Below, one piece after another: positions 5,329 through 41,051 of a stretch of 64,000 nucleotides of DNA. The notes under the pieces were generated by a model. That model ran no database searches, was not told the origin of the DNA, and worked only from the letters and a program-made list of their open reading frames with translations. Every line of letters begins with the position of its first letter. Position 1 is the stretch's first letter. The stretch is from an uncultured Bacteroidales bacterium (GTDB lineage: Bacteria > Bacteroidota > Bacteroidia > Bacteroidales > FEN-979): positions 36,678-100,677 of the forward strand of contig CAIQUS010000187.1 of NCBI GenBank assembly GCA_903875045.1, in the 5' to 3' direction. Position numbers and translations under genes: made by a program.

Positions 5329-5388
5329 CCCGTCACGCGTCACCCTGTCACCCGTCACCTTGTCACCCCTCATCCGTCACCCGTCACC
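5329..5388. repeat. Tandem 7-8-nt array, core GTCAC(C), about 8 units
   Basis: cccgtcac gcgtcac cctgtcac ccgtcac cttgtcac ccctcat ccgtcac ccgtcac cc fills the entire spacer between the stop at 5326-5328 (+) and the gatD stop at 5389-5391 (-). Confidence 0.9.
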
Positions 5389-6774
5389 CTACTTATGAAA
5401 CTTCCTGATAAACTCTTCCACCTCCGGCACCCCGCCCTGGTAGATGAGGTAACCGTTGTAAGGCTCGCGCGGTGTGATTTCGCTGTTGATAGGCGTTAGC
5501 ATGATCTCTTTTACCCTGGCCAGATCGGAGGTTTGCCCAAGTGCCCAGCTCAGCTTGATAAATGCTGTTTCCGGGAGCATGTTTTCTGCCGGAATGATCC
5601 CCTTGGCCATAAGGTCACGCCCTGTGTCATACACAAACATGTGAACATATCCCCACAAGGTTTGCACCGTCATGTAAATAGCCACACCCTTCGCAATAGC
5701 CCGTTCAATGGCAGGGTAAATAGGCTTGTTCACGTGTCCCAAACCAGTACCGATGATGATGATCCCTTTGTACCCGGCATCAACCAATGCGTCTATCACA
5801 TCCGGCTGCATGTTGGTATAATAGTAGATCATGGTCACCTTTTCTTCATAATAGGGCATGATGGTCACATTCCGGTCGGTCCGCCGCCGTTTGTAATCAT
5901 GTTTGATGGGTACCACACCCTGCCGGCTGACAGTGGCAATGGGGGTATCGCCGATGGTACGAAAGGTAGACCGGTAGGATGAATGCATTTTCCGGACACG
6001 GGTCCCTTTATGCAGAAAACCATATTCATCGGAGGTAGGACCAAACATACAAACCATTACCTCTGCTATATCTCCATGCGCGGCAGCCGTGGCAGCATGC
6101 ATCAGGTTCAGCGCAGCATCGGAACTTGGCCGGTCGGAAGAACGCTGCGACCCGACCAAAATGATGGGAACCGGTGAGTTTTGCACCATGAAAGTCAAGG
6201 CAGCAGATGTGTAATGCAGGGTGTCTGTCCCATGCCCGATAATGATGCCGTCAATCCCCTTTTCAATCTCATGTCCGATAGCGACAGCAAGTTTTTTATA
6301 CTGCTCAGGCCCCATATTTTCACTGAAAACTGCAAACAGTTTTTCAGTCGTCAGGTTGCAGATATCAGCCAACTCCGGAACAGCACCATACAACTCCCCA
6401 GGTGAAAATGCAGGAATCACAGCACCGGTGCGGTAGTCTAGCCGGGAGGCAATGGTGCCTCCTGTCCCCAGCAATTTCACATTCGGCTTATCCTTGGAAT
6501 AGGGAAACTCCTTCTCCGGGATTTTATAAACCGCTTTTTTATAACCTAGTTCAACAATGTCGGTGATGCCATCAATGGCGACACCAATATTATATCCTGT
6601 AAAAATCTTTAAGACCAGGTGCTTATCATCGGTATTTTCGGCCCTTGGCAATATGGTACCTTCAAAAACACCCCGGCTGCTCTCAACCTTGACCTTCGCC
6701 CAAACCCTGGCATTGAATTTTTGTAGTACTGCGAGTGCCCGTCCTTTGTATCCCTGGAAAATATCTTCGCTCAT
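5389..6774 (-). CDS. gatD: Glu-tRNA(Gln) amidotransferase subunit D-like (asparaginase-domain protein, archaeal GatD type)
   Basis: 461 aa. An N-terminal extra domain of about 90 aa precedes a type-I L-asparaginase domain with 'GTGGTIAS' and 'HGTDT' motifs. It lies 30 nt downstream of a GatE-like gene. Confidence 0.75.
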   Translation of the reverse strand: MSEDIFQGYKGRALAVLQKFNARVWAKVKVESSRGVFEGTILPRAENTDDKHLVLKIFTGYNIGVAIDGITDIVELGYKKAVYKIPEKEFPYSKDKPNVKLLGTGGTIASRLDYRTGAVIPAFSPGELYGAVPELADICNLTTEKLFAVFSENMGPEQYKKLAVAIGHEIEKGIDGIIIGHGTDTLHYTSAALTFMVQNSPVPIILVGSQRSSDRPSSDAALNLMHAATAAAHGDIAEVMVCMFGPTSDEYGFLHKGTRVRKMHSSYRSTFRTIGDTPIATVSRQGVVPIKHDYKRRRTDRNVTIMPYYEEKVTMIYYYTNMQPDVIDALVDAGYKGIIIIGTGLGHVNKPIYPAIERAIAKGVAIYMTVQTLWGYVHMFVYDTGRDLMAKGIIPAENMLPETAFIKLSWALGQTSDLARVKEIMLTPINSEITPREPYNGYLIYQGGVPEVEEFIRKFHK

Positions 6775-6783
6775 AATCAGATA

Positions 6784-6815
6784 GTGAGTGTTAAGTGTTA
6801 AGTATTAAGTGTTAA
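6784..6815. repeat. Tandem heptamer array GTGTTAA, about 4.5 units, overlapping the gatE stop codon
   Basis: gtga gtgttaa gtgttaa gtattaa gtgttaa. The last codons and the TAA of gatE (6805-6807) are encoded by the array. Confidence 0.85.
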
Positions 6816-8772
6816 GGCTGATTTTTTGACTGAGTTCTTTGAGGGAAATGTTGCCCGTAGCCAGTTTGTTCAGGTTTCCCATCACCCAGCGCAGCCCGGC
6901 TGAATCATCGTGAGAGGTTCTGATATCCTTATATTTTTTCACAAGGAACGGCACTTTCTCAAGAATTTCCTCTTTGGTCACCTCACGGAAGTTGAGGGTA
7001 ATCAGGATTGACTCGAAATCCATCTTCGGATGTTGGTAAAGATGAAACAGCATTCGTTTTGCAATCGCAATATCCATCTTGCGGTCAACCAGGAATTTGA
7101 GCAATCCGAACACCTGATCAAACGAAAAATCGGGCAAGGGGGGATATTGTCCCTGCAGATGTTTCAATGTATGGGCAAGCAATCCGGAGGTAAACCTCGC
7201 CGGTATATGGAGTTCGGTCTGTGCTTTTTCAAGCAAAGGAACCAGGTTGTTCTTTAATAAGTAGGTATGCGTATCTTCCGGAACATTCCATTCCATCAGT
7301 TGTCCGATGCGCTCTGAAACCAGTTTGGGAAGCCGTTTCACTGCTTCGTCAATATCTGCATCTTCAAGTGGTATGGGTGCCGAATCGGTATCGGGATACA
7401 TACGGTCGGCACCAGGCAGTACTCGTTCGAAAATGGTGGTACCATCTTCAAACGACTTCCTGGTTTCATTCGGCACACCAGTAAAAGCCAACCGGCAGCG
7501 CTCTTCGATTGTTTCAAGGGCTGTTTTAATATCTTCCTCCGGCCCCCAGAAAATCAGCTGGGCATCACCATCCTTGCTACCAAGCAGGGATTGAACTTTT
7601 GTCCATGCCTTTTCGCCCACTACATCCTCAAACATTTCGGAATGTACCATGTTGGGTTTCTCAATGCAGGCAATCACTTTTAACCGGTCGGAGAAATCAT
7701 CGGCAAACATCTTCCCGGGCTGGGTAAAATGCGACAGTATTCCGTGGAAATGTGGCAGGTTCACAAGATACACCTTGAGTGTTGAACTTTTGGGGACTCC
7801 AAGGTTTTCCAGTTTAAAATCTTTCGCTCTTGCTTCCTTAGCAACCATTTTCCAGTTTGCCGGGTCTTTGATCGATTTGTTCAGAATATCTTTGATCGCA
7901 AGCAAAGCCCATTGCCGGTATGCTTCATTATGGGTGAGCTCCGGCATCCAGTTGTTGTGGGCAACACCTTTGATTTCAACACGGGTCCCGCCTTTGCAAC
8001 TCACATTCACATCGGCACGGGTAGAACCAATGCCACTTCTGACCTTCCCTGTACTGCGATTCAGAAACCTGATGTAGTCAGCGCCCTCTTTCACTTCATC
8101 CGGATTTTTAAACTCAGGATAGGTAACTGTTTCAATGAGCGGCATACCCAGGCGGTCGGTTCTGTAAATGCGTACATGGCCGATGTCGGACACTTCCCTG
8201 CAGGAATCCTCCTCCAGGCTAAGCTGAATGAGGCGAACTGTTTTATGTTTCAACTGAATCTCCCCTTCAATCCCTATGATGGCAGTTCGCTGAAAACCTG
8301 TAGGGATGGAACCATCAAGGTATTGTTTCCGGGTGATGTGCACCTCCCCTACCACTTTCAATTTCGACAGCAGTGAAATATCGATGGCATGTGATAGCGC
8401 TTCCCTGTTGAGTGGGAATGGCGGGGTATCATCCACATCGTATGTGCAAGCCGTCTCATTTTTGATGCGGTAAATGATATTTTTTCTCGTCCTGAATTCC
8501 ATCAGTGCAGTGCCATCATACTCTCCGAGTTCGCTCAAAGTCGGTCGCATGTGCCGGATCAGTTCGGCATCAAAATCATCTGCTTTCTGAAAAATTCCGG
8601 CAGGACAATGGCAGAAAAGCTTTTCTTTGGTCTTTAATTGCTGGTGAACTTCAAGTCCCGACATAAAACCTATGCGGTCATAGTCAGCCTGGGTGGCATT
8701 TTTTCTAGGGACATATCCAATTTTTTGCTGTGTTTCGGCATGGTTGCGCCTGGCATCGAAAATATGTTTCAT
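6805..8772 (-). CDS. gatE: Glu-tRNA(Gln) amidotransferase subunit E-like (archaeal GatE type)
   Basis: 655 aa. The N-terminus 'GFMSGLEVHQQLKTKEKLFCHCPAG' matches the GatB/GatE signature. The length and the inserted domain fit GatE rather than GatB (about 480 aa). It has a C-terminal YqeY/GatB-like tail and is paired with a GatD-like gene. Confidence 0.75.
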   Translation of the reverse strand: MKHIFDARRNHAETQQKIGYVPRKNATQADYDRIGFMSGLEVHQQLKTKEKLFCHCPAGIFQKADDFDAELIRHMRPTLSELGEYDGTALMEFRTRKNIIYRIKNETACTYDVDDTPPFPLNREALSHAIDISLLSKLKVVGEVHITRKQYLDGSIPTGFQRTAIIGIEGEIQLKHKTVRLIQLSLEEDSCREVSDIGHVRIYRTDRLGMPLIETVTYPEFKNPDEVKEGADYIRFLNRSTGKVRSGIGSTRADVNVSCKGGTRVEIKGVAHNNWMPELTHNEAYRQWALLAIKDILNKSIKDPANWKMVAKEARAKDFKLENLGVPKSSTLKVYLVNLPHFHGILSHFTQPGKMFADDFSDRLKVIACIEKPNMVHSEMFEDVVGEKAWTKVQSLLGSKDGDAQLIFWGPEEDIKTALETIEERCRLAFTGVPNETRKSFEDGTTIFERVLPGADRMYPDTDSAPIPLEDADIDEAVKRLPKLVSERIGQLMEWNVPEDTHTYLLKNNLVPLLEKAQTELHIPARFTSGLLAHTLKHLQGQYPPLPDFSFDQVFGLLKFLVDRKMDIAIAKRMLFHLYQHPKMDFESILITLNFREVTKEEILEKVPFLVKKYKDIRTSHDDSAGLRWVMGNLNKLATGNISLKELSQKISLNT

Positions 8773-10410: not shown

Positions 10411-10456
10411 CAATTTCACCATTTCACCATTTCGCAATTTCACCATTTCGCTATTT
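10411..10456. repeat. Tandem 7-9-nt array ATTTCAC/ATTTCGC, about 6 units
   Basis: caatttcac catttcac catttcg caatttcac catttcg ctattt fills the spacer between convergent stops at 10407-10409 (+) and 10455-10457 (-). Confidence 0.9.
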
Positions 10457-12697: not shown

Positions 12698-15406
12698 TTG
12701 TTAACGAAATTATTAACAAGGTCTTTCCATTCTACGCTTCTTTTGGTCCTTCTCTTCCTGCAAATCACAGATGTGGTTGCCCAGGATACGATCCGGCAAC
12801 CAAAGGGAGATGCTGTTTTAGTGCCCACCGGACAGATTGACATCGTCAGTCCTGATTCCCTGAAATTTGATTCCGTCCGTTTAGATTCCATCAACGCCAA
12901 TGCTCAAACAACAGACTCAATTTCTGCTGCCAGCCTGCTGAAAAAACAGAAGAAAAAAACCAAGCTTGATGCCCAGGTTGATTACGCATCAGAGGATTCG
13001 CTTCGCTTTGAGATCAAAGGGCAAAAGGTTTTCCTGTACAAGGTTGCCAAGATAAAATATCAGGACATCTCACTGAATGCCGACTATGTAGAGATCGATT
13101 TTGTTAAAAATGTCGTTTATGCAACCGGGGCAAAAGACTCTATCGGTAAGGATGTCGGAACACCAGAGTTCAATGACGGAAGCCAAAGTTTCAAATCAAA
13201 GGCCATCAATTACAATTACACCACAAAAAGGGGATATATCAACACCGTATTCACCAAACAGGATGAGGGTTACCTCCATGGCACCGTGGTAAAAAAAATG
13301 GAAAACAATATAACATACATAAAATCTGGATCATACACCACATGCGACCTTGAAGAGAATCCGCATTTTGCATTCAAATTCAGCAAGGGGAAAGTAATTC
13401 CCGGGAAACGGGTGATCACCGGACCAGCATATATGGATATTGCCAATGTAGCAACCCCGTTGCTGATTCCCTTTGGTTTTTTCCCGAACAAATCAGGTCA
13501 GCGGTCGGGGATTCTCATACCAACTTACGGTGAATCCAATAACCGGGGATTTTATTTTGAAAACTTCGGATATTACTGGGCTGCCAGTCAGTACCTGGAT
13601 GTAACCGTGCTGGCCGACATTTATACCCGTGGCAGCTGGGCCATCAAACCTACCATCAGATATAATAAAAGGTACCATTACAACGGATCCTTCAACTTCA
13701 GTTATGCAGTCAATATTCTTGGCGCCGCCGATTCACCTGATTATCAGAAAAGTAAAGATTTTCAGATTCGCTGGGTACACAGTCAGGACGGGAAAGCCAG
13801 GCCTCATAGCAGTTTTTCGGCCAATGTGAACATTGTCAGCAATACCTTTAACAAGTATAATCTTTCATCAAGTACTCAATCTTACTTATCCAACACATTT
13901 CAGTCAAGTGTCAACTATTCCACCAGTTTTTCCAATAAATATTACCTGAACCTCAACTTCAACCACAGTCAGAACACCCTGAACAAAACCATTAACATCA
14001 CCCTTCCGCAGGTTTCGTTTTCAGTGAATCAGTTTTATCCCTTCCGCCGGCAGAATCCTGTCGGGAAGATGCGCTGGTATGAACAAATCAGCATGAAATA
14101 CAACATGGATGCAGAGAACCGTTATAATACCACTGATTCAACCTTCCTGAAAGGCAAATGGGCCGACTCCATGCAAAACGGCATGCGACATTCCTTTCCC
14201 ATCAGTGGGACCTTCCGGATTCTGAAATTTCTCAACTGGTCCAATTCCATGAATATTACCGACAGAATGTACCTGAGCACCATCCGGAAACAATATATCG
14301 ATACTGTTTTCTTGTCGGGCGATTCAATTTCAATCAGGCGTGATCTGGAAACAAGACAGATTTCCGGTTTTGCCAATGCTTTTGACTTCAGTGTGTCATC
14401 TTCGTTAAACACCCGAATCTATGGGATGTACCAATTCAAGGGAAATGGGTTGATCCGTGCCATCCGGCACATGGTAACTCCGTCTGTCTCATTTTCCTAT
14501 ACCCCCAACTGGGGTGCCCCGGGAATCGGTTACTGGCAGGAAGTGGCCAACGATCCCAAAACAGAAGCCACCCGCTACTCCGTTTTCGAGAGGGGAGTTT
14601 ACGGAAGTCCGCCCGGCCAGAAATCGGGAATAGTCTCATTCGGCATCAGCAACAACATTGAACTCAAAGCAAGAAACCGCAAAGATACCATCAGCGGAAT
14701 CAAAAAAATACCCCTTATCGATGATCTGACAATCCGGTGTTCTTACGACATCGCCCGCGATTCGGTAAACTGGTCGCCCATTACCCTGAGTGGCCGCAGT
14801 TCAATCATCAAAGGATTAACCATTCAATATGGCAGTACCTGGAACATCTACACCCGTGATTCACTTGGCAGATCGACCAACACAACTGAGTGGAAAGCCA
14901 ACCACCGGCTGATCAGGCTCGACAATACAACCTGGGATGCCGGTTTCTCCTATTCATTATCCTCGGAAAAAATAAAAGGAAAAAAAACCACTGATAAGGG
15001 AACGCCACAGGAAAGGCAAGACATAGTTGACTATTACGATTACTATGTCGACTTTGATATTCCATGGAGTTTTTCGATCAATTATAATTTCCATTATGGC
15101 AAACCCTGGGATAATAATGTAAAAAAACGTGTCCAGCAGATAACCCAGACCCTCGGATTCAACGGCCAGTTGAACATCACCCCAAAATGGAAAATCACAC
15201 TGACAACCGGCTGGGATTTTGTGCATAATGAACTTTCCTACACCTCCATCGACGTGTATCGCGACTTGCATTGCTGGGAGATGCGGTTTGGATGGGTCCC
15301 GAAAGGCGGCCAGCAAAGCTGGAATTTCTCGATAAACGTAAAGGCATCTATTCTTCAGGACCTGAAACTCAATAAAAAGAAAGATTTCCGGGACTATGGA
15401 AACTAA
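12698..15406 (+). CDS. lptD: Bacteroidetes-type LPS-assembly protein LptD-like outer-membrane protein
   Basis: 902 aa with a TTG start and a signal peptide. An OstA-like N-terminal region is followed by a long region rich in beta-strands and aromatic residues. The envelope-gene context (amidase, MlaD, OstA-like) supports the call. Confidence 0.65.
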   Translation: MLTKLLTRSFHSTLLLVLLFLQITDVVAQDTIRQPKGDAVLVPTGQIDIVSPDSLKFDSVRLDSINANAQTTDSISAASLLKKQKKKTKLDAQVDYASEDSLRFEIKGQKVFLYKVAKIKYQDISLNADYVEIDFVKNVVYATGAKDSIGKDVGTPEFNDGSQSFKSKAINYNYTTKRGYINTVFTKQDEGYLHGTVVKKMENNITYIKSGSYTTCDLEENPHFAFKFSKGKVIPGKRVITGPAYMDIANVATPLLIPFGFFPNKSGQRSGILIPTYGESNNRGFYFENFGYYWAASQYLDVTVLADIYTRGSWAIKPTIRYNKRYHYNGSFNFSYAVNILGAADSPDYQKSKDFQIRWVHSQDGKARPHSSFSANVNIVSNTFNKYNLSSSTQSYLSNTFQSSVNYSTSFSNKYYLNLNFNHSQNTLNKTINITLPQVSFSVNQFYPFRRQNPVGKMRWYEQISMKYNMDAENRYNTTDSTFLKGKWADSMQNGMRHSFPISGTFRILKFLNWSNSMNITDRMYLSTIRKQYIDTVFLSGDSISIRRDLETRQISGFANAFDFSVSSSLNTRIYGMYQFKGNGLIRAIRHMVTPSVSFSYTPNWGAPGIGYWQEVANDPKTEATRYSVFERGVYGSPPGQKSGIVSFGISNNIELKARNRKDTISGIKKIPLIDDLTIRCSYDIARDSVNWSPITLSGRSSIIKGLTIQYGSTWNIYTRDSLGRSTNTTEWKANHRLIRLDNTTWDAGFSYSLSSEKIKGKKTTDKGTPQERQDIVDYYDYYVDFDIPWSFSINYNFHYGKPWDNNVKKRVQQITQTLGFNGQLNITPKWKITLTTGWDFVHNELSYTSIDVYRDLHCWEMRFGWVPKGGQQSWNFSINVKASILQDLKLNKKKDFRDYGN

Positions 15407-15413: not shown

Positions 15414-15438
15414 AAATCGTAAATTAATAAACGTAAAT
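15414..15438. repeat. Degenerate heptamer array of the AAATCGT family, about 3.5 units
   Basis: aaatcgt aaattaa taaacgt aaat lies immediately before the ridA ATG at 15439. Confidence 0.5.
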
Positions 15439-24160: not shown

Positions 24161-24163
24161 AGG

Positions 24164-27346: not shown

Positions 27347-27361
27347 GCAACCTATAACATC

Positions 27362-31068: not shown

Positions 31069-31106
31069 AGATGTATTTATTTAAAAATCATTTATTGATA
31101 AGTCAA

Positions 31107-31808: not shown

Positions 31809-31815
31809 CCTTCAA

Positions 31816-32106: not shown

Positions 32107-32119
32107 TGCAATAGTTATA

Positions 32120-32167
32120 ATTTCGCTATTTCACTATTTCACTATTTCGCTATTTCGCTATTTTTCT
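32120..32167. repeat. Tandem octamer array ATTTCGCT/ATTTCACT, 6 units, overlapping the arsC-arsM stop
   Basis: atttcgct atttcact atttcact atttcgct atttcgct atttttct. The TAG stop at 32158-32160 lies inside the array. Confidence 0.92.
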
Positions 32168-33387: not shown

Positions 33388-33459
33388 GATGTGATGATTT
33401 GATAATGTGTTGATGTGATGATGTGATAATGTGATGATGTGATAATGTTTTGATATACT
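33388..33459. repeat. Tandem octamer array GATGTGAT/AATGTGAT, 9 units
   Basis: gatgtgat gatttgat aatgtgtt gatgtgat gatgtgat aatgtgat gatgtgat aatgtttt gatatact abuts the arsC-arsM start codon. It is the reverse complement of the array at 40972-41051. Confidence 0.92.
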
Positions 33460-33461
33460 GG

Positions 33462-33492
33462 TTTTCAATTTTCAATTCTCAATTTTCAATTG
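33462..33492. repeat. Tandem heptamer array TTTTCAA, about 4 units
   Basis: ttttcaa ttttcaa ttctcaa ttttcaa ttg abuts the arsR stop (33494-33496). Confidence 0.88.
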
Positions 33493-33493
33493 A

Positions 33494-33829
33494 TTACCTG
33501 CATTCATACTCCGACCCCATATTGATTTCGTTGAAGAAGCAGTTAGCCATCGTTACCAGTTCATCTACTTTTTGGGGATTCAGGCAGTAGTTTACCTTTA
33601 CGCCATCTACTGTACCCTGTATCAAACCTGCTTTTTTCAATTCAGTAAGATGCTGGTTAATGGTGGTCCGGCTCAAGGGCAATTCATCGGAGATATCTCC
33701 GGTTATACACACCTTTGTCTCCGCCAGGTATCGCAGTATTGCCAGCCTGGCGGGATGTGCCAGTGCCTTAAAAAGGACGGCGGATGAATTTAACTTTGAA
33801 TCGAAGAGACTTGTTTTGGAGGAAGCCAT
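33494..33829 (-). CDS. arsR: ArsR/SmtB family metalloregulator
   Basis: 111 aa. '[17 protein letters not shown]' and the winged-HTH segment '[21 protein letters not shown]' are typical. 'KVCITGDIS' carries a Cys near the alpha3 site. Confidence 0.9.
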
Positions 33830-33830
33830 T

Positions 33831-33886
33831 TTGATTTACGATTTGCGATTTACGATTTACGATTTACGATTTACGATTTACGATTT
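33831..33886. repeat. Tandem heptamer array ACGATTT, 8 units (reverse complement of the 21102-21163 unit), overlapping the ABC-ATPase stop
   Basis: ttgattt acgattt gcgattt (acgattt)x5. The last codons (..NRKS) and the TAA (33864-33866) of the upstream gene lie inside the array, and the array ends 1 nt from the arsR ATG. Confidence 0.95.
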
Positions 33887-34541
33887 TCCCTTCATTCAGG
33901 TGCAGCTTCATCGTTCCATATTCTGCTGCAACCGGGCTGTGTGTAACCATCATGATGGTGATTTTATTCTCCTGGTTAATTTTTCTCAGGAAGTCCAATA
34001 TCTCCAGGGAGAGTGTTGGGTCTAAATTACCTGTTGGTTCGTCTGCCATGATGATCGATGGCCGATGAACAATGGAACGGGCAATTGCTACCCTCTGTTG
34101 CTGTCCTGCAGATAATTCCCTTGGCAAATGTTCCATCCTGTCTGATAAACCAACATAGTCAAGAATTTCTCCGGCACGTTTGATTTGCTCTCTGCGAGCT
34201 ATTTTTTCGAGCGCCAGCGGAATCATCACATTCTGTATCGTTGTCAGGTACGGGATAAGGGCAAAACTCTGAAGGATATATCCGACCGATTTTTTCCGGA
34301 TATCAGTAAGGTGCTTGTCACTGATATTGTCGATCCTTTTTCCATCAAAAAAGACCGTTCCGGAAGTGAGCCTGATCAGGCCGAACAACGAGAGCAGGAG
34401 CGTGCTTTTCCCGGATCCGGAAGGACCGGTAACCGTTACAAAATCCCCCTTTCCAACCGTGAAGGAAACGTGATCAAGTGCATTGATCAACCCACCATGA
34501 TGATGGTATTGCTTCAAAATATTTTCTCCTTTTAATATCAT
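33864..34541 (-). CDS. ABC transporter ATP-binding protein (MacB/LolD/FtsE-like)
   Basis: Walker A is 'GPSGSGKST', the signature is 'LSAGQQQRVAIAR', and Walker B is 'IIMADEPTGNLD'. Confidence 0.9.
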   Translation of the reverse strand: MILKGENILKQYHHHGGLINALDHVSFTVGKGDFVTVTGPSGSGKSTLLLSLFGLIRLTSGTVFFDGKRIDNISDKHLTDIRKKSVGYILQSFALIPYLTTIQNVMIPLALEKIARREQIKRAGEILDYVGLSDRMEHLPRELSAGQQQRVAIARSIVHRPSIIMADEPTGNLDPTLSLEILDFLRKINQENKITIMMVTHSPVAAEYGTMKLHLNEGKIVNRKS

Positions 34542-34544
34542 GGG

Positions 34545-35765
34545 TTAATCCTCCTGCAGGTTTGAGTGTGGATCAAATTTAGCTGCGAGATAAGTAGGGA
34601 AAAGTGAACCTGCCAGAGAAATTGCGACAGATAAAAGGACAGACCAAAAAAGGTACAGATATACTGGTTTTACAATAATACCGGCAAGATAGGGTCCTAA
34701 AATAACCCCGGCCAGTGTACCCAGAATAAAACCAAGGATACCTCCTGCAACTCCAAGAATCAGTGCCTTTAACAGGAACATCTTGTAAATCGTTGACCGT
34801 TCGGCTCCCATCATTCTGAGGATGCCAATTTCCCTTTTCCGTTCATTGACGTTTGCCCAGATGTAATTACCGATTGAAATGCCTCCGACAAAAAAGATGA
34901 TGATCAGCATGACAAGCGTAATTTTTTTCATCAGCTGGTTGGTTTCTATCTGGGTTGAAACGATCTGACCGATAGTTGTTACCCTGGTGTCGGGAAGAAT
35001 GTTCCTTAATTGTCCTAATAATCCCTCGGAGATAGCATTGCAGCATCCCATGATTTCAATGGCGGAAACCTGGTTTTCAAGTTTTAGAAGTGTTTGAACA
35101 TCTTTCAGGTTCGCAAAGATCCGGTCGTCATCCACTGTTCCGGTCTCTGAAAGAATTTTAACAACCTTGAATTCCTTGCCCACAATATTGATCTTACTAT
35201 TTGCGGAGAGTTTTAACCGCTGTGCAACCTGCGAACCTACCAGACAATCTTCGCTATAAAGCGTGTCGATTGCTTTTCGTTGCAGTTTTTTATCCTCCAT
35301 CCCGTGCGATTGATTTGCAGTCTGGGTGGGTGCACAGGCCGTTTTCAACTCGGCACCCATTAATCCGGATGATTGCCACAAGGGTTTGGATGCAATTTCG
35401 CTCTTGGGGAGAATGCCGGTCAATACCACTGATTGATCCCCCACTTTAACCCTTCGGGTTAATTTTGGCGACATGTTATCAACACCTGCAATGGTGGAGG
35501 TAAGAATACGTTCAACGTAATCCATGGGTAAGGTTGGGGCATCGATATCTGAAGTGTAATAGTCATCAATGCTGGCAGCCTGAGGCAGAACAAGTATATT
35601 GGCCCCAAGATTATCAAGGTTCCTGGCAACATTTTGTTCTGAGACAATGGAAACGCTTTGAATGGCAACGATCACGGCAATACCAAGTGTGATGGCCAAT
35701 AACCCGGTAATTAACTGAGATTTTCGTTTCCATAATTCGATCAGGACAAGTTTCGAAATTGTCAT
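34545..35765 (-). CDS. ABC transporter permease, FtsX/MacB type with large periplasmic domain
   Basis: 406 aa. TM1 is followed by an extracytoplasmic domain of about 230 aa and then three C-terminal TM helices with the FtsX-like 'REIGILRMMGA' motif. Confidence 0.85.
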   Translation of the reverse strand: MTISKLVLIELWKRKSQLITGLLAITLGIAVIVAIQSVSIVSEQNVARNLDNLGANILVLPQAASIDDYYTSDIDAPTLPMDYVERILTSTIAGVDNMSPKLTRRVKVGDQSVVLTGILPKSEIASKPLWQSSGLMGAELKTACAPTQTANQSHGMEDKKLQRKAIDTLYSEDCLVGSQVAQRLKLSANSKINIVGKEFKVVKILSETGTVDDDRIFANLKDVQTLLKLENQVSAIEIMGCCNAISEGLLGQLRNILPDTRVTTIGQIVSTQIETNQLMKKITLVMLIIIFFVGGISIGNYIWANVNERKREIGILRMMGAERSTIYKMFLLKALILGVAGGILGFILGTLAGVILGPYLAGIIVKPVYLYLFWSVLLSVAISLAGSLFPTYLAAKFDPHSNLQED

Positions 35766-35795
35766 AGCAAGGGTAGTTTAGGGAAAAGAGATTAT

Positions 35796-36539
35796 TTATT
35801 TACAGCCGCCTGCCGGTGCGCCACCGGGACAACACCCTCCTGCCGGTGCCTTTTTTGCAGAGGCAACAAGCGTGTTGACATCCGTGATTCCGTTATGAGT
35901 CCCGATCACCTGACCCGATTTATTGATCACATAAGTTACAGGCTCTTTTGCATTTAAATCGCACTTCAGCGTTTGCAACAATTTAGCCTCTTTCTTATCA
36001 TCCAGGTCTATTTTTATCGTCACGCTTTTGTTGTCCATTTTGCCGCATGCCATAGCACAGTTATCCATGGCCTTGTCGTGACTGGTCATCGTTTCTTTGT
36101 AAGCCACCACATAAACTGATTTGCCTTCATTGATTGCTTTAAGAAGCTCCGAAGTTTTTGGTGTAGGTACCATTTCAATTAGTTTCGCAGCCGTTGCTTC
36201 TTTTAATGGAAGACCACCGGCGACCGTACTGTTTTTATCCAAAACAAGGATCAATGGCATGGGAGCACCTGCTAAACGATACTTTGCCACAAGCTCATTG
36301 TTGGCTGCATCCGTTGTGTTCATTTTAATGATGACCGATGATGATTTAAGGGCACTCTTTGCTTCATTGGCAATTGAAAAAGCCTTGTCAGTGTCAGCGC
36401 CATTTGTATTATATGCGACAAGAAATACCGGTTTGCAAGCCTTACCGGCTTTTTCAATTTCAGTTGTAACTTGTGCGTTAACGTTGCTCATTCCTGTCAC
36501 AAACAGCAACAGAATCATAATGCTTTGAATCTTTTTCAT
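35796..36539 (-). CDS. Exported protein: two tandem modules of about 95 aa plus a C-terminal Cys/Gly/Pro tail
   Basis: The signal peptide is MKKIQSIMILLLFVTGMSNVNAQ. The internal duplication is 'KPVFLVAYNTNGADTDKA...VIIKMN' versus 'KSVYVVAYKETMTSHDKA...VTIKID'. The tail is 'APAGGCCPGGAPAGGCK'. Confidence 0.6.
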   Translation of the reverse strand: MKKIQSIMILLLFVTGMSNVNAQVTTEIEKAGKACKPVFLVAYNTNGADTDKAFSIANEAKSALKSSSVIIKMNTTDAANNELVAKYRLAGAPMPLILVLDKNSTVAGGLPLKEATAAKLIEMVPTPKTSELLKAINEGKSVYVVAYKETMTSHDKAMDNCAMACGKMDNKSVTIKIDLDDKKEAKLLQTLKCDLNAKEPVTYVINKSGQVIGTHNGITDVNTLVASAKKAPAGGCCPGGAPAGGCK

Positions 36540-36561
36540 GGTTTTGAGATTTGGTATGGCG

Positions 36562-36590
36562 CAAATATACGTTATATTTTACAATAACGT
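36562..36590 (-). promoter_or_regulatory. Candidate internal promoter (-7 box TATATTTG) overlapping a 7-8-7 inverted repeat
   Basis: On the minus strand, ACGTTAT-tgtaaaat-ATAACGT is followed directly by TATATTTG, about 22 nt upstream of the ATG at 36539. Confidence 0.4.
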
Positions 36591-36629
36591 AATAATACGT
36601 CATATCTTTTTATAAACATTTTTATGATT

Positions 36630-37601
36630 TTATTCAGATATGGTATTTGCCTGTCTGCGGGCCTGAATGGAAATAAAATCGATTTTCTTTGTCAATCTTA
36701 ATGAGAGTGCATATCCAAACGACATTTGTATCCCGTTATAATATTTATATAATGGTACATCTCCAAAAACCGAAAGATACCAGTTGTATTTAAAGGCATA
36801 AGTAAGCTGGGGAGTGAAACAGGTCACATTATAACCCGAAGATTCTACAATCTCTTTGTTTTCCCGGATGGCTTTCGCCCGGTATTCATTTCGTATCTGG
36901 AGGTCAAGACTGAGGTTCTTAATGATTTTATAATTAAAGTACAGGGCCCCGATCCATTGCTCGCCATATTGGTAATAAAAATTTTCTGATTCAATCAGCT
37001 GGGCATACTCATAGGAAATAAATCCGGCAAGTGCCATTTTTTTTCCGACCCCCTTTGAGATAAATATGTTGCCAATGTATTTGAAACTTCCCGATGATGG
37101 CTGAACAGAGATTGGGAGTTTAACATGATCCACCTCCTGGTCAAATACTCCGATCGGAAATTTCATTCCGACAGAGGGCGATATGGTAAACCGCGCTTTG
37201 GCGTTGCTGTAAAGATTGAATTTCAGGTACAATGCTGCATCACCAAGACCATAACCCCGCATGGGATCCTGCCCATCGGTATGAAGGGTTTTGTTGAAAA
37301 AGTATCCCAGGTCACCCATTACGGTCAGCCATTTGGTAACCCCATAACCCAGTTGAAGTTCTGTATAGTTGACATTCGCTGTTTGTGTGAAGTTTAAATC
37401 ACGATAGGGCGAATCATTGTGATAGAATTGTTCGGAATGACTGTAACGGTATGTCAGCGCTGCAGTGAGTACCCTTGACTGCAAGGCAGGTTGCTCTGCA
37501 TCACTGATGAAAGGGTTTCCTGATGCACAGCATTGGGCCATGACCCGGGTACCCGTCAGATGAAAAATGAGAACCATTGATAAAGCTGCATTTCGAACCA
37601 T
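36630..37601 (-). CDS. Outer-membrane beta-barrel (porin/transporter-like) protein
   Basis: It has a signal peptide and alternating amphipathic beta-strands rich in Y, F and G. The family is not firmly identified. Confidence 0.5.
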   Translation of the reverse strand: MVRNAALSMVLIFHLTGTRVMAQCCASGNPFISDAEQPALQSRVLTAALTYRYSHSEQFYHNDSPYRDLNFTQTANVNYTELQLGYGVTKWLTVMGDLGYFFNKTLHTDGQDPMRGYGLGDAALYLKFNLYSNAKARFTISPSVGMKFPIGVFDQEVDHVKLPISVQPSSGSFKYIGNIFISKGVGKKMALAGFISYEYAQLIESENFYYQYGEQWIGALYFNYKIIKNLSLDLQIRNEYRAKAIRENKEIVESSGYNVTCFTPQLTYAFKYNWYLSVFGDVPLYKYYNGIQMSFGYALSLRLTKKIDFISIQARRQANTISE

Positions 37602-37624
37602 GGAAGATATTGTGCTGGTGAAAT

Positions 37625-37975
37625 TTAAGGATGGTAATGGGTTGTTACCCGGATCATGATGGTGTCGGATACCTCTCCGGTGTCGTTAAACACCCGACAG
37701 GTAATTGTGTTCAGTCCCACGCAGCATTCGCCTGCTGCATATTTGATGGTTTTCCCGCTTCCTCTGAAATCGCCATGATTGGCCTCCCAGCCATATTGCA
37801 AATTTGAACCGGTTGCCTCAACAGTGATAATGGTCGTATCCCATGCCTCGATCGGGTTAAGTGTAGCAGTCAGGCTCTGTAACCGGATATCACCAGCCGA
37901 TTTTTCAGTTGTGGCTTTGGAGCACGAAACCAGAATTAGGGTGGACAACACGAGAAGGATAATCATTCTATTCAT
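37625..37975 (-). CDS. Small lipoprotein of unknown function
   Basis: The lipobox is 'LSTLILVSCSK'. 116 aa, rich in beta-strand. Confidence 0.55.
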   Translation of the reverse strand: MNRMIILLVLSTLILVSCSKATTEKSAGDIRLQSLTATLNPIEAWDTTIITVEATGSNLQYGWEANHGDFRGSGKTIKYAAGECCVGLNTITCRVFNDTGEVSDTIMIRVTTHYHP

Positions 37976-38003
37976 ATTTGCGTTTTAAGAAATGGAATGG
38001 CAG

Positions 38004-39020
38004 TTAATAAATCGCATTAAAAAGAAATCCAACGAAAATAATTCCTATAGTTACAACTCCGACAAAAGTCAGGAGTAACCTCATTTTAAGAACCTTTCTG
38101 AGGATGATCATTTCAGGCAAGGATAAGCCGATAACGGCCATCATAAACGCCAGTGCAGTACCCAGGGGAACCCCCTTTTCAATCAGCACACTCACGATCG
38201 GAATGATCCCTGCTGCGTTCGAATACAGGGGAACCCCAATCAGTACAGACAGAGGCACTGAATACCAGGTCGATTTCCCCATGAGATTGGCCATGAAGCT
38301 CTCCGGAACATATCCATGGGCTGCTGCACCAACAGCAATACCAGCAACTATATATAACCAGACTTTGCCAACGATTTCTCTCACTGCATTGTAGCCGGCT
38401 TGTATTCTGTCGTCGAGGTGGATTTTTTCTTCCTCCTCTGATGAATGATCTGCTTTAATTTCATAAACCCAACTCTCAACATGTTTTTCAAGCTTGAGTT
38501 TCCCAATGACCCAACCTGCAGAAATGGCAATAACCAGTCCTGTAGCAACATAGATTGCTGCAACTTTCCAGCCAAACATACCGAACAGAAGGATTACCGC
38601 CACTTCGTTGATCATGGGTGCGGCAATCAGGAATGAAAAGGTCACTCCCAACGGAATGCCTGATTCAACAAAACCAAGAAACAAAGGTATGGCCGAACAT
38701 GAGCAAAATGGTGTTACGATCCCAAGCATGGAGGCCATCACATTCCCCGTGAAAAGTGATTTCCCTTCCAGCGCCTTCCGGGTTCTTTCCGGTGTAAAAA
38801 AACTGCGGATGATCCCCACCACGAAAATGATCAGCACCAGCAAAAGGAGTACCTTGGGCACTTCAAAGATGAAGAACCTCAATGCTTCTGTAAGATGCTG
38901 ACCCTTTGGCAATTGAATAACACCATCAACGATCCAGTCTGCAACAGATTGCAGATTAATATATGTCAGAATCCATAGTCCCAGGAGTATGATTGGCCAG
39001 AGCCATTTGAATGATTTCAT
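38004..39020 (-). CDS. Permease of the UPF0718/DUF318 family (ArsP-like organoarsenical permease candidate)
   Basis: It is a multi-TM protein with the conserved 'TPFCSCSAIPLF' motif. This family commonly co-occurs with arsR and small redox-active disulfide proteins. I trimmed the start to the ATG at 39020 (MKSFKWLWPIILLG). The longer track ORF overlaps the upstream gene. Confidence 0.75.
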   Translation of the reverse strand: MKSFKWLWPIILLGLWILTYINLQSVADWIVDGVIQLPKGQHLTEALRFFIFEVPKVLLLLVLIIFVVGIIRSFFTPERTRKALEGKSLFTGNVMASMLGIVTPFCSCSAIPLFLGFVESGIPLGVTFSFLIAAPMINEVAVILLFGMFGWKVAAIYVATGLVIAISAGWVIGKLKLEKHVESWVYEIKADHSSEEEEKIHLDDRIQAGYNAVREIVGKVWLYIVAGIAVGAAAHGYVPESFMANLMGKSTWYSVPLSVLIGVPLYSNAAGIIPIVSVLIEKGVPLGTALAFMMAVIGLSLPEMIILRKVLKMRLLLTFVGVVTIGIIFVGFLFNAIY

Positions 39021-39081
39021 GTTTATTCTTAGCGTTATAATTCGTTTTTCGTAGAAAGACGAAATTGTCGGGGAAAAAAAA

Positions 39082-39501
39082 TCAAGCCTTTTTATTTCGA
39101 GGCTTGAGCTGACACATACAAGATCCCGACAATTTTTCACTTTTATCAATTACCAGGGGCATTTCATCCCGCTCCCACTCCACCAGTCCGCCGGCAAGAT
39201 TTGCTATTCTGCCTGCAAGACCGTTTAACATGAGCAGTTTTACTGCCTCCTTGCTGTGCAATCCTGCCGCATCGGCAAAAATCATGGGTTTATCCATTGG
39301 CAAATACGCATAATTCTCCTCCAACATGCTGAAAGGGCAATAAATCACCTCAGGAACATCAAACATCTTAAACCTGCTCAGCGCCTCTTCTCTCACATCA
39401 ACAATCACCGCCCCTTTCTTACATAAAGAAAATGCCTTGTGAGGCGTCACATTCATGATCCCCGCACTAAAAAATCCCCCATTGAAAAACCCCTCTTCCA
39501 T
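39082..39501 (-). CDS. Rhodanese-homology domain protein lacking the catalytic Cys, with a C-terminal CxC tail
   Basis: It is rhodanese-like: 'AVIVDVREE...F' and 'GG...W'. The active-site loop position reads 'FADAAGLHS', with no Cys. The tail is 'SGSCMCQLKPRNKKA'. Confidence 0.6.
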   Translation of the reverse strand: MEEGFFNGGFFSAGIMNVTPHKAFSLCKKGAVIVDVREEALSRFKMFDVPEVIYCPFSMLEENYAYLPMDKPMIFADAAGLHSKEAVKLLMLNGLAGRIANLAGGLVEWERDEMPLVIDKSEKLSGSCMCQLKPRNKKA

Positions 39502-39509
39502 TAATCCCT

Positions 39510-39557
39510 CAAATTTTCAAATCCTCAAATCCTCAAATCTCCAAATTTCCAAATCAA
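39510..39557. repeat. Tandem octamer array CAAATCCT, 6 units
   Basis: caaatttt caaatcct caaatcct caaatctc caaatttc caaatcaa lies between the stop at 39562-39564 and the rhodanese start at 39501. Confidence 0.92.
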
Positions 39558-39561
39558 TTTG

Positions 39562-40272
39562 CTATATAAAGAAAATGACAATGTAATATATTCCAACCAC
39601 GATAAATAAAACCGCTACCACCCTTCGGAACCATAATTCAAAGATTTTGATCTGATTATATAATTTACCTACGTTCCCCACAGCATAAGCAAGTAACCAT
39701 GCAAAAATAATGACTGGCAGACCGGTTGCAATGGCAAAAACAACCGGTAAATACAAACCACTAAGACTGGTAATCGTTATTGGGATGAGTATGGCGAAAT
39801 AAAGAACCCCGCTGTAGGGACAAAATGCCATTGCGAAGACCATACCCAAAAACAAAGTGCCCCAATAACTACGTTTGCTGTGTTCTCCAATTTTTTCAGT
39901 CAGTCCAGAAAACCCGGGAAATTTAATCCTGATAAAGTCGAGCATTAAAAGGCCAATTACGATCAGCAATGGTCCAAGGACTTTTTCCCCCCATCCCTGG
40001 AAAAGCATGGTTATATGCATTTTGCTGGCACCAAAAAACAGGATAACCCCCAAACCGGTATATGATATCGCACGTCCCAGAGTATATACCAACCCCTTGA
40101 TAAATACCCGTTTACGATTTTCAATGTCGCGGCTGATAAACCCGATGGCCGAAATGTTGGTTGCCAATGGGCATGGACTGATAGCTGTCATTAGCCCAAG
40201 AATGAACGCCGTGAGCGCGCCATACTGAGAATTGTCAAGAATCGTTTGGAGGTACTGCATATTTATTATCAC
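39562..40272 (-). CDS. DsbD_2/CcdA-like transmembrane thiol-disulfide transfer protein
   Basis: 236 aa, about 6 TM helices. The conserved 'AISPCPLATN' motif is in TM1 and a second Cys-Pro ('AFCPYSG') is in a central TM helix. Confidence 0.7.
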   Translation of the reverse strand: MIINMQYLQTILDNSQYGALTAFILGLMTAISPCPLATNISAIGFISRDIENRKRVFIKGLVYTLGRAISYTGLGVILFFGASKMHITMLFQGWGEKVLGPLLIVIGLLMLDFIRIKFPGFSGLTEKIGEHSKRSYWGTLFLGMVFAMAFCPYSGVLYFAILIPITITSLSGLYLPVVFAIATGLPVIIFAWLLAYAVGNVGKLYNQIKIFELWFRRVVAVLFIVVGIYYIVIFFI

Positions 40273-40273
40273 A

Positions 40274-40705
40274 TTATTTTAAGAACCCGTCGATTGCTTT
40301 TTTTATCTCTGCCTTCAGCTTTGCCGGACTATCGTTGGCATACATAAAGCCTTTATCAGTCAGGTCGACCCGTTTATCCCCTGAGATGACGATGAGTGTC
40401 TGGCCTTCGATTTTATACTTTGCTCCAATTGCTTCCCCAGCTTTTTCATCCAGGTTGATACTTTTAAAAGAAATCTCTCCGCTTTTCACCTGAGCTGCAA
40501 ATTGAGTTTCGACGGCCTCACTGGAAACTTTCTCTACATTGTTGCATGTCGTGCAACGTCTGGTGAAATGGAAATAATAGACTGTAATACTTTTGCCTGT
40601 CCCAATGGAAGGTGGTCCGAATGAAGCCGATGAAGTACTGGCGTAGCTGAATATATTTCCCGTTGCCATGGCAAGAAGAAATAATAACCCGATGATCCTT
40701 TTCAT
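40274..40705 (-). CDS. Exported CxxC protein (thioredoxin-fold-like module)
   Basis: It has a signal peptide and the motif 'VYYFHFTRRCTTCNNVE'. The module resembles the two CxxC-less modules of the 35796-36539 protein. Confidence 0.55.
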   Translation of the reverse strand: MKRIIGLLFLLAMATGNIFSYASTSSASFGPPSIGTGKSITVYYFHFTRRCTTCNNVEKVSSEAVETQFAAQVKSGEISFKSINLDEKAGEAIGAKYKIEGQTLIVISGDKRVDLTDKGFMYANDSPAKLKAEIKKAIDGFLK

Positions 40706-40715
40706 ACCTGGTTTA

Positions 40716-40949
40716 TTATTTGGTTAATAATTGCTTTAATTCTTCGGAGGTGGGAATACGACCTTTCAACACCACCTTCTCATCAACAACCAGGGCAGGT
40801 GTCGACATTACACCATATTTCATGATCTCCATGATGTCATCTACCTTGATTATAGTAGCATTGATCCCATTTTGCTCAACCACGTCATGGGTGAGTTTGA
40901 CCAGCGTATTGCATTTTGCACAACCCGGACCTAAAACCTTAATTTCCAT
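40716..40949 (-). CDS. Small thioredoxin-family protein (redox-active disulfide protein 2 type)
   Basis: 77 aa. 'MEIKVLGPGCAKCNTL' carries the CxxC motif, and '...VMSTPALVVDEKVVLKGRIPT' is also typical. Confidence 0.88.
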   Translation of the reverse strand: MEIKVLGPGCAKCNTLVKLTHDVVEQNGINATIIKVDDIMEIMKYGVMSTPALVVDEKVVLKGRIPTSEELKQLLTK

Positions 40950-40971
40950 TTTTTATAAAATTTTAAAACAA

Positions 40972-41051
40972 CAATCAATCAAATCATCAAATCATCAAAT
41001 CACCACATCATCAAATCATCACATCATCACATCATCACATCATCACATTAC
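40972..41051. repeat. Tandem octamer array CAAATCAT/CACATCAT, 10 units
   Basis: caatcaat caaatcat caaatcat caaatcac cacatcat caaatcat (cacatcat)x3 cacattac lies between the arsR stop (41054-41056) and the trx start (40949). Confidence 0.95.

Follow-up and report, generated by a model that had tools for sequence, protein, structure and literature searches.

Short spacers between the genes of a 64-kb stretch of an uncultured Bacteroidales genome (contig CAIQUS010000187.1, positions 36,678 to 100,677; the whole stretch is referred to here as the window) are occupied by tandem arrays of 7-8-nt units. What are these arrays, how do they arise, and why are they found where one gene ends and another begins? 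A sequence-only reading of the window listed 13 of them between 5 and 41 kb. We find the arrays to be genuine, non-random and placed at the edges of open reading frames (ORFs), with a sharp preference for period 7 and then 8 that is seen well beyond this genome. Most probably (at about 60%) they are bacterial long simple sequence repeats, i.e. heptamer/octamer microsatellites akin to short tandemly repeated repetitive (STRR) sequences, that would be generated by period-biased slippage together with occasional copying between loci.

Tandem 7-8-nt arrays at gene boundaries

Tandem Repeats Finder (TRF) was run on the whole window with a score threshold of 30. It recovered 12 of the 13 arrays as period 7 or 8, within ~3 nt of the positions first reported, with only the array at 15414-15438 being marginal. 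The recovered arrays contain 3.8-8.9 copies with 78-96% matches. Arrays of this kind are over-represented compared to a random-sequence model: 13 arrays with a period of 7-8 and 3.5 or more copies are present in the window, versus 1 in total across thirty 3rd-order Markov simulations (~0.03 expected by chance). The units are contiguous and head-to-tail, without spacers and hence not CRISPR-like, as had been noted from the sequence. Between 5 and 41 kb the density is ~1 array per 2.7 kb, and about two-thirds of the eligible spacers are occupied. The initial description of the arrays as neither AT-only nor hairpin-forming also holds, given a GC content of 35% (44% for the window) and an essentially unstructured sequence, with a minimum free energy (MFE) mostly of 0 to -3 kcal/mol and a mean z-score of 0.07. 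An Rfam scan of the window matched two tRNAs only, with no match at the arrays. Mixed 7- and 8-nt variants occur within single arrays (e.g. CCCGTCA with CCCTGTCA in array 1), and several arrays display higher-order periods in TRF (15/22, 16/24 and 24); both are expected from multi-unit duplication.

The host can be assigned to the Bacteroidota on the basis of four proteins with type IX secretion system (T9SS) C-terminal sorting domains, the presence of LptD_2 and OstA_2, and the relatives of its Tgt protein. The best of these are 'Bacteroidales/Bacteroidota' proteins from metagenome-assembled genomes, with OY820914.1 at 75% identity and metagenomic relatives at 83-89%. Three gene models were corrected (CCP start at 27346, Tgt start at 23030, and a 77-aa thioredoxin gene at 40716-40949). 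The arrays and their positions relative to the neighbouring genes are as follows.

5328-5390, array 1: ACCCGTC/CCCTGTCA, mixed 7-/8-nt units, ~8.6 copies; fills the whole 60-nt spacer between the convergent stops of a BNR/T9SS protein and GatD; member of the clade-wide CCYGTYC family
6787-6816, array 2: AGTGTTA, 4.3 copies; between co-directional gatE and gatD, with the gatE stop inside the array and 12 nt to the gatD start
10411-10456, array 3: ATTTCACC, 4.6-5.7 copies, higher-order periods 16 and 24; occupies the entire 45-nt convergent spacer OstA_2/MlaD
15414-15438, array 4 (marginal): degenerate AAATCGT-like units, ~3.5 copies; follows the LptD stop and precedes the RidA start; below TRF score 30
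21102-21162, array 5: AAATCGT, 8.7 copies, 96% matches; flush with the stop of an extracytoplasmic function (ECF) sigma factor and 25 nt before the urocanase start, those 25 nt being conserved in relatives
24164-24211, array 6: GTGGGCAA, 4.5 copies, decaying to GTGAACTG; 3 nt past the tgt stop, with the lptF/G start following after 14 nt; holds a canonical G-quadruplex motif (24162-24193), the window's other such motif (3348-3372) lying outside the arrays
27359-27390, array 7: ATCCCAA, 4.6 copies; 6 nt past the UDG stop, with the likely CCP start (27346) following after 12 nt
27331-27367, neighbour of array 7: resembles a remnant of the AAAATGC array found at the same spacer in relatives
32120-32167, array 8: ATTTCGCT, 5.5-6 copies; arsC-arsM stop inside the array, 13 nt to the next start
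33386-33459, array 9: ATGATGTG, 7.9-9 copies, higher-order period 24; abuts the arsC-arsM start codon
33462-33492, array 10: TTTTCAA, 4.3 copies; 1 nt from the ArsR stop, directly adjoining array 9
33831-33886, array 11: GATTTAC, 7.7 copies, reverse complement of the array 5 unit AAATCGT; final 7 codons and stop of an ABC ATPase read from the array; ArsR start 1 nt away
39507-39557, array 12: TCAAATCT, 5.9 copies; 4 nt from the DsbD_2 stop and 5 nt from the rhodanese start
40972-41051, array 13: ATCACATC, 8.9-10 copies, reverse complement of the array 9 unit; 2 nt past the ArsR2 stop, with the Trx_3 start (40949) following after 22 nt
51347-51374, an additional array that the first listing had missed: AAATTGA, 4.0 copies, between tRNA-Pro and tRNA-Ser

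No ORF interior in the window carries an array, and the TRF hits within ORFs all have 2.5 copies or fewer. The earlier statement that gene bodies are free of arrays is correct in this sense, with the qualification that three arrays (starting at 6787, 32120 and 33831) overlap the 3' end of the upstream ORF by 10-23 nt, with its stop codon being part of the array. The C-terminus of the ABC ATPase (KIVNRKS, followed by the stop) is read from array 11 in this manner. Every array in the window begins 0-7 nt from a stop codon or overlaps it. With the corrected gene models the arrays take up 64-100% of their spacers, and thus indeed fill or nearly fill them. This extends to array 13, as the apparent 266-nt gap behind it contains the 77-aa thioredoxin gene. 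Two arrays exactly fill convergent stop-to-stop spacers, and the others lie between co-directional genes.

In the 5-41 kb region, 17 spacers of 30 nt or more are convergent or co-directional, and 12 of these hold an array, versus 0 of 7 divergent ones (Fisher p=0.025). TRF was also run on 1.42 Mb from 84 Bacteroidota loci that surround tgt, and repeats with 3 or more copies were counted (hereafter the survey). Occupancy here is 6.3% for divergent, 6.8% for convergent and 7.6% for co-directional spacers, and a general avoidance of divergent spacers was rejected. A total of 132 of the 149 survey arrays (~89%) lie outside ORF interiors though ORFs make up 89% of the sequence, and 168 of 206 arrays from a metagenome set are non-coding. 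The preference for gene boundaries goes beyond an effect of spacer size: where a spacer leaves 100 nt or more of free room, survey arrays are found at its edges far more frequently than expected for uniform placement (Kolmogorov-Smirnov p=9e-7, i.e. ~1e-6). The median gap in co-directional spacers is 6 nt to the upstream stop and 22 nt to the longest-ORF start, the latter being a lower bound. Survey arrays abut the stop more often than the start (37 vs 23). Of the 20 arrays in co-directional spacers that leave 60 nt or more of free room, 12 lie by the stop and 4 by the start. Gene calls in these surveys are crude (longest ORF, greedy), with start distances representing lower bounds and some 'internal' arrays located in spurious ORFs.

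Four contigs from other ENA assemblies (L081, L082, L083 and L088) align gaplessly to the window across arrays 8-11 and 13. Two of these (L081 and L083) are 100% identical to the window, L088 differs by 1 base, and L082 differs only at the contig ends. As independent assemblies match the window without gaps, the arrays are not assembly artefacts. The concern about artefacts that accompanied the first reading can thus be set aside, and similar arrays are also present in isolate genomes. The arrays do appear to fragment metagenome assemblies: L083 ends ~55 nt beyond array 9, and an array at 16060-16115 of the related contig L084 lies ~110 nt from the contig end. They also lengthen 'longest ORF' calls at 5' ends, as seen for window 32158-33468.

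Several other features of the window surround the arrays or adjoin them.

5389-8772 (-): GatD (500 bits, cutoff 310) and GatE (gatE_arch 394 bits, cutoff 319.55), an archaeal-type Glu-tRNA(Gln) amidotransferase, with an array in between; GatDE is usually regarded as archaeal
30022-41362 (-): arsenic/redox island with ACR3, an ArsC(LMWP)-ArsM fusion, two ArsR, an ArsP-like permease, two DsbD_2, thioredoxins and rhodanese; holds 6 of the 13 arrays, one of them of the AAATCGT family; missing at this locus from the relative L085, where BPL is followed by acetyl-CoA synthetase
44055-45212 (1.2 kb) and 49088-51264 (2.2 kb, adjoining tRNA-Pro and tRNA-Ser): devoid of arrays, Rfam matches and ORFs with Pfam hits; these may be degraded or unannotated genes, or the remnant of an integrated element
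51699-63735 (-): two giant T9SS-tailed proteins, one of 2226 aa with subtilase S8 and GEVED domains and one of 1710 aa; together they take up 12 kb, which explains the lack of arrays in this region

Period bias, unit families and turnover

The survey arrays are strongly biased in period, with 102 of period 7 and 47 of period 8, as compared to 9, 8, 12 and 1 for periods 5, 6, 9 and 10, respectively. Similar counts were obtained for 80 unrelated metagenome contigs (91 of period 7, 22 of period 8, 13 of period 6 and 5 of period 9). Periods 6 and 9 would be tolerable in genes, and as both are rare everywhere, the bias is a property of the generator rather than of coding selection. The sharp preference for 7 over 8 hence supports the 'specific generating mechanism' suggested by the sequence-only reading.

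The distribution across genomes is patchy. Most survey genomes contain 0-2 arrays, congeners of array-rich ones included, with rich loci (8-15 arrays in 13-21 kb) found in L001, Mucilaginibacter (L005), Bacteroidales (L028, L031 and L038), L037, Pontibacter (L047) and Pedobacter sp. Hv1 (L051). The latter carries 12 arrays in 21 kb, while other Pedobacter carry 0-1. An exact search for (AAATCGT)4 matched at least 120 metagenome contigs, with GC contents of 33-68% among the matches listed, and contigs with this sequence contain other 7-8-nt arrays at 0.28 per kb. The feature is specific neither to this lineage nor to the phylum, and the suggestion that it is lineage-specific is not borne out. 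A special role for AAATCGT was likewise ruled out, given the broad GC range of its metagenome hosts and its frequency in viral contigs, where (AAATCGT)4 gave 8 hits as compared to 8, 6 and 30 for composition-matched control heptamers. One control, (AATCAGT)4, identified a group of viral contigs (L240-L269, e.g. IMGVR_UViG_3300044824_000335) with 3-5 or more arrays each in both orientations; the group represents a virus-associated genome with one dominant heptamer family.

The units are highly diverse, with 114 canonical units in the 149 survey arrays, and yet they recur within genomes and clades. Pairs of arrays within a genome share a unit in 16.3% of cases vs 3.6% for the background (at most 1 mismatch, any rotation or strand). 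In the window, AAATCGT is found in arrays 4 and 5 and, as the reverse complement, in array 11, and thus in both the conserved core (array 5) and the ars island (array 11); it is also present in L085. Furthermore, ATGATGTG of array 9 is the reverse complement of ATCACATC of array 13, and ATTTCACC of array 3 is close to ATTTCGCT of array 8. The flanks of arrays 5/11 and 9/13 share no similarity, terminal repeats or target-site duplications, and these pairs thus show no sign of a mobile element. Of the 30 arrays in five related genomes, 8 belong to a CCYGTYC(R/G)/CCCGTCA family, which is missing from the 129 arrays elsewhere and is found in both orientations and in different spacers. This family was defined post hoc, with the excess surviving removal of the defining arrays. 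In L085, 2.5 units of the clade family are already present in a spacer of only 23 nt, resembling a proto-array. In L001, a 100-nt composite of [AGGCTKC]n-linker-[CTCTATC]n is found twice (13727-13918 and 17783-17899), 4 kb apart and in the same order and orientation, which suggests array blocks can be copied between loci.

Array orientation is random with respect to transcription: in co-directional spacers 33 arrays are G>C and 37 C>G in the mRNA sense. Among 58 arrays, 34 have a stop triplet in the sense unit and 33 have one in the antisense unit, with 31.6 expected, ruling out a role of the arrays as three-frame stop codons after genes. Inspection by eye of seven co-directional arrays for the Bacteroidota promoter motifs TTTG/TAnnTTTG revealed TTTG (sense) in 3. 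Inverted pairs of same-unit arrays occur within one spacer in L209 (10415-10541, (TTCACTG)3...(AGTGAAC)3.4) and L033 (985-1064, AATTATC/TTGATAA), and could fold into long hairpins; similar 'paired repeats' have been reported in Xanthomonas (Rehm et al. 2015, PMC4692102). A longer repeat is present in L084 (1846-2054; a 53-nt tandem repeat with 3.9 copies and 92% matches), where it adjoins two 7-8-nt arrays in the spacer after a T9SS-tailed gene.

Six syntenic lineages, found via Tgt homologues, cover 13-30 kb of the window. Their Tgt identity to the window is 88% for L084, 87% for L085, 86% for L213, 85% for L086/L087, 84% for L209-L212 and 75% for L001. In L086 there are 0 arrays of 7-8 nt in the syntenic 21 kb, the spacers measuring -4 to 27 nt. 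The sigma-to-urocanase spacer contains (AAATCGT)8.7 in the window, (CCCGTCCG)6.6 in L085 and (TCACCCG)7.7 in L209. It is array-free in L084 (unique sequence), L213 (15 nt), L086 (where the genes overlap) and L001. Where present, these arrays are always flush with the sigma stop, and the ~25 nt before the urocanase start are conserved and intact. The tgt-to-lptF/G spacer holds GTGGGCAA in the window, CCCGTTCA in L085 and GTCCGCCT in L209, and is an array-free 13-21 nt in L084 and L213. At two further spacers arrays persist across lineages. For the hyp254/BPL spacer the units are GGACAGGC in L084, GGACAAGC in L211 and GGACAGGT in L213. The UDG-to-CCP spacer contains AAAATGC in L084 and AAAGTGC in L209, with the apparent remnant at window 27331-27367. 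Conversely, window spacers of 15 and 23 nt measure 192 and 117 nt in L001, the extra length consisting of two or three adjacent arrays. From these comparisons the arrays are insertions into otherwise minimal spacers that are gained, lost or replaced, and that drift, on a genus-level timescale. Such turnover among syntenic relatives argues against a conserved locus-specific function.

Extra genes in the relatives (L086 11235-12980, L213 12401-13198 and L001 15074-16010) are located exactly at spacers that bear arrays elsewhere. These include PMT_2 between tgt and lptF/G, and MbnP between CCP and UDG. Within this small sample, it may hint that array-bearing spacers are hot spots for recombination or insertion.

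Origin of the arrays and competing explanations

The data establish the non-random occurrence of the arrays, their period bias, their intergenic and ORF-edge placement, the diversity and families of their units, and turnover among relatives. In the model we favour, arrays would originate and lengthen when strands slip, or re-prime out of register, during replication or repair, a process that would intrinsically work best at 7 nt and then at 8 nt, with single-base indels interconverting the two periods. An existing unit would occasionally seed other spacers of the genome in either orientation, leading to a small, drifting 'library' of units per genome or clade. Arrays arising inside genes would be purged by selection, as neither 7 nor 8 is a multiple of 3, while a deletion bias would clear other useless DNA. 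Arrays would thus persist only where bases are free of constraint, past a stop codon and ahead of the next functional signal, and constraint on leaders and promoters would further confine them to the bases next to ORF ends. By surviving only in unconstrained DNA beside ORF ends, they would seem to fill minimal spacers. The model assigns the arrays no conserved locus-specific role, with side effects on expression of the downstream gene being possible. Slippage as the generator, copying between loci and neutrality are what we infer from these patterns, and a cis-regulatory role would still be compatible with the data.

A number of observations weigh against this model. Identical unit variants are not significantly more adjacent within arrays (0.556 vs 0.522, p=0.15) and edge units are not more degenerate, these slippage-signature tests being negative or uninformative, in part because TRF trims array edges. 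No copy-number polymorphism is seen among the retrievable assemblies of the window, P0011 and P0034 lineages, all of which are identical; these assemblies are probably of the same strains, and consensus assemblies hide minor variants. With independent assemblies of each of three lineages being identical, hypermutability of the arrays is unproven. Unit families are retained between genomes that should have diverged to saturation at neutral sites, which is hard to reconcile with purely local slippage. Together with the 2.5 family units in the 23-nt L085 spacer, this persistence requires either copying between loci or selection on sequence. The units behave like STRR families and a satellite 'library', which implies some inter-locus copying or sequence selection atop local slippage. 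The empty divergent spacers of the window depart from the occupancy found in the survey. Finally, arrays within 30 nt upstream of starts are G-poor (C>G) in the mRNA sense (26 vs 11, p=0.02 uncorrected), and units are slightly less self-complementary than shuffled ones (79/121, p=1e-4), which points to some selection on what is tolerated near starts. Leaders in Bacteroidota lack a Shine-Dalgarno (SD) sequence and are unstructured, and the G-poor bias near starts fits with this.

The G-poor bias and the lower self-complementarity would also fit if the arrays were cis-acting landing pads, in RNA or single-stranded DNA, for single-strand binders with a ~7-nt footprint that tune translation initiation or mRNA stability downstream. 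Candidates in the SD-less Bacteroidota would be cold-shock-domain proteins, ribosomal protein S1 and RNA recognition motif (RRM) proteins; cold-shock domains have a 7-nt footprint. The position of many arrays, ending 0-25 nt from a start (often 6-19 nt from one start for survey arrays in divergent spacers), and their lack of structure agree with this proposal. It also has published precedent, as binding of S1, Csp or CsrA was proposed for TAACTGA repeats (MacGregor 2015, PMC4679880), and deletion of heptamer repeats near start codons was reported to alter promoter-reporter regulation in Nostoc (preprint 10.1101/2022.06.06.494920). However, the units are extremely diverse and their overall orientation is random relative to transcription, while two arrays fill convergent stop-to-stop spacers without any downstream start. 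Arrays are also found by stops more than by starts, in roomy spacers as well (12 vs 4), and orthologous genes in L086 and L213 manage without arrays. We therefore consider a landing-pad role unlikely.

A dedicated, period-specific generator or mobile process, i.e. an enzyme that adds or copies 7-8-nt units at particular sites or a tiny mobile satellite, would account for the unit libraries, the two orientations and the patchy phylogeny. The genome- or clade-specific families, the contrast within genera exemplified by Pedobacter sp. Hv1 and by the array-free L086, the duplicated composite block of L001 and the proto-array of L085 can all be read in this way, and transposition has also been suggested for heptamer-derived satellite families (PMC6749651). 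Against this, same-unit arrays lack similarity in their flanks, terminal repeats and target-site duplications, and no candidate enzyme gene is linked to the arrays in the window. Furthermore, the same period bias is found at 33-68% GC and in viral contigs, and for this reason a universal property of replication fits better than a lineage-specific enzyme. A dedicated process is accordingly rather improbable.

It is more doubtful still that the arrays are not passive products of slippage but the visible output of a dedicated 7-8-nt copying or adding activity, or of a matching binding protein, that seeds stop-proximal libraries and punctuates gene boundaries. Equally doubtful is the accompanying notion of a system that serves compact Bacteroidota genomes without hairpin terminators and that is gained and lost between relatives, which would explain the patchiness.

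Transcript punctuation or insulation by itself, with the arrays acting as sites of factor-dependent (e.g. Rho-type) termination or processing or as spacers uncoupling neighbouring genes, draws on the scarcity of conventional terminators. In the region 5000-44999, terminator-like hairpins are at chance level (22 vs 19.8 and 26 vs 20.1 expected), none are located in spacers, and convergent genes lie 0-60 nt apart without hairpins. The arrays begin 0-7 nt past stops, where terminators would be, certain convergent spacers consist entirely of array, and the inverted pairs in L209 and L033 could form long hairpins. The arrays themselves are without hairpins, which rules them out as hairpin terminators. 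Likewise, Rho-utilisation-like C-rich RNA was ruled out by the random orientation and by the lack of a C>G (rut-like) sense bias downstream of stops (units: G 104 vs C 63). Apparent operons (gatE-gatD, ars genes), in which termination would do harm, contain most of the arrays, relatives have spacers of 0-25 nt without arrays, and the sequences are too diverse for a single factor. We regard punctuation as very unlikely. The functions initially proposed (punctuation, binding, tuning of spacing and insulation) find no positive support, given the random orientation, the diverse units and the array-free L086.

An origin as assembly or consensus artefacts is scarcely credible: short-read assembly is disturbed by the arrays, with some short contigs ending in or near them (e.g. 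L212 inside an array), but identical, gapless arrays were obtained from different ENA samples and assemblers, arrays of the same kind are present in the isolate genomes of Pedobacter sp. Hv1 and Pontibacter sp. H259, and such arrays have been published for finished genomes (PMC4679880).

Comparison with known repeat classes

The cause of the intergenic heptamer excess has been an open question since the description of cyanobacterial STRRs and the 2007 survey of simple sequence repeats (SSRs). The window and its syntenic relatives provide a compact natural experiment, with the same gene order and arrays that are present, absent or built from a different unit, and array-rich and array-free sister lineages make the question testable in Bacteroidota. 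In practical terms, the arrays break short-read assemblies and mislead ORF callers (through 5' extension and supplied stops), and they are possible markers for strain typing.

The initial view that no described class matches the arrays does not hold, as heptamer/octamer repeats of this kind are described in PMC4692102, PMC4060949, PMC4679880 and PMC6749651. An excess of heptamer SSRs in bacteria was reported by Mrazek et al. 2007 (LSSR5-11, where LSSR denotes long simple sequence repeat), as cited in PMC4692102, which attributes to that study an explanation by polymerase slippage in which the excess reflects the stretch of DNA gripped in the polymerase active site, i.e. the polymerase footprint. 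In Bacteroidetes the '7n3' class is over-represented (median category 0.75, Table 2; Huang & Mrazek 2014, PMC4060949). Like the LSSR5-11/'7n3'/'8n3' class, the window arrays consist of 7-8-nt tandem units in at least 3 copies, occur far above chance and are concentrated in intergenic DNA, with heptamers commonest. The head-to-tail iteration of a 5-11-nt unit, the over-representation and the intergenic excess that define LSSRs are thus all found here. With regard to length variation, independent assemblies are identical (probably the same strains), and more distant relatives differ in presence, unit and copy number. The LSSR/'7n3' studies differ in being statistical surveys without ORF-edge placement, unit libraries or orthologous-spacer turnover, and the density of the window is high in comparison.

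Other classes share part of these properties. Three tandem heptanucleotides are known from Calothrix PCC 7601, as cited in PMC4692102. TAACTGA and other heptamer arrays occur in five Bacteroidetes and are missing from close relatives at the same spacers, with strain indels in 7-nt steps for the TAACTGA arrays (MacGregor 2015, PMC4679880). The TAACTGA repeats of Beggiatoaceae, cyanobacteria and Bacteroidetes resemble the window arrays as intergenic heptamer arrays near ORF boundaries with array-free relatives. They differ in that BOGUAY has a single dominant unit placed 'forward' just upstream of starts, whereas the arrays studied here are diverse, randomly oriented and more often at stops; TAACTGA itself is found in the window as 7 single copies, none in tandem. 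The G-rich heptamers of Xanthomonas and Nostoc (GGGNATC/GGGGAYT, G-quadruplex-forming) are ~90% intergenic, lie nearer to the end of the upstream ORF than to the downstream one, and are less frequent between divergent genes (Rehm et al. 2015, PMC4692102). They share the intergenic location, the proximity to the upstream ORF and a length that varies between related species. In contrast, only array 6 (24162-24193) fits the G3+N1-7 x4 motif and the other 12 do not, no G-rich unit dominates, and tandem GGGAATC is absent from the window.

Contingency-locus SSRs are also short tandem units prone to slippage; theirs are 1-5-nt units in ORFs or promoter spacers, at which changes in copy number switch expression, in contrast to the 7-8-nt window arrays outside ORFs and promoters. 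This class was rejected, given the location outside ORF interiors, the absence from divergent spacers of the window and the lack of polymorphism among assemblies. A clustered regularly interspaced short palindromic repeat (CRISPR) array requires 23-50-nt repeats and unique spacers of similar length, rather than contiguous 7-8-nt units. Repetitive extragenic palindromic (REP) sequences, bacterial interspersed mosaic elements (BIMEs) and miniature inverted-repeat transposable elements (MITEs), whose imperfect palindromes or terminal inverted repeats are able to fold into hairpins, do not match either, with MFE near 0, z ~0, no shared flanks and only tRNAs detected by Rfam. Heptamer-derived satellite families, for which transposition was suggested (Subirana & Messeguer 2019, PMC6749651), provide the 'library' concept: related genomes share differentially amplified families, e.g. 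(GATAGRA)n in Chloroflexus and 6-8-nt repeats in Burkholderia. The arrays described here are 25-80 bp and tied to gene boundaries, and the library model applies as an analogy only.

The closest likeness in behaviour is to the STRRs of heterocystous cyanobacteria (Calothrix/Nostoc), which are dispersed, mostly intergenic tandem heptamers with families common to related genomes in both orientations. The same sharing of families is seen for AAATCGT (window and L085) and for CCYGTYC (five related genomes). The STRR1-3 units are CCCCAGT, TTGGTCA and CAACAGT, none of which occurs in tandem in the window. The phylum also differs, there are many more unit types per genome here, and in the window units of 8 nt almost match those of 7 nt in number. 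Judged by their sequence features, the arrays appear to possess the defining properties of the heptamer/octamer SSR class, and to be STRR-like in behaviour without being STRR members. They are not a new kind of element, but a Bacteroidota example of simple repeats that have been described before and are poorly understood.

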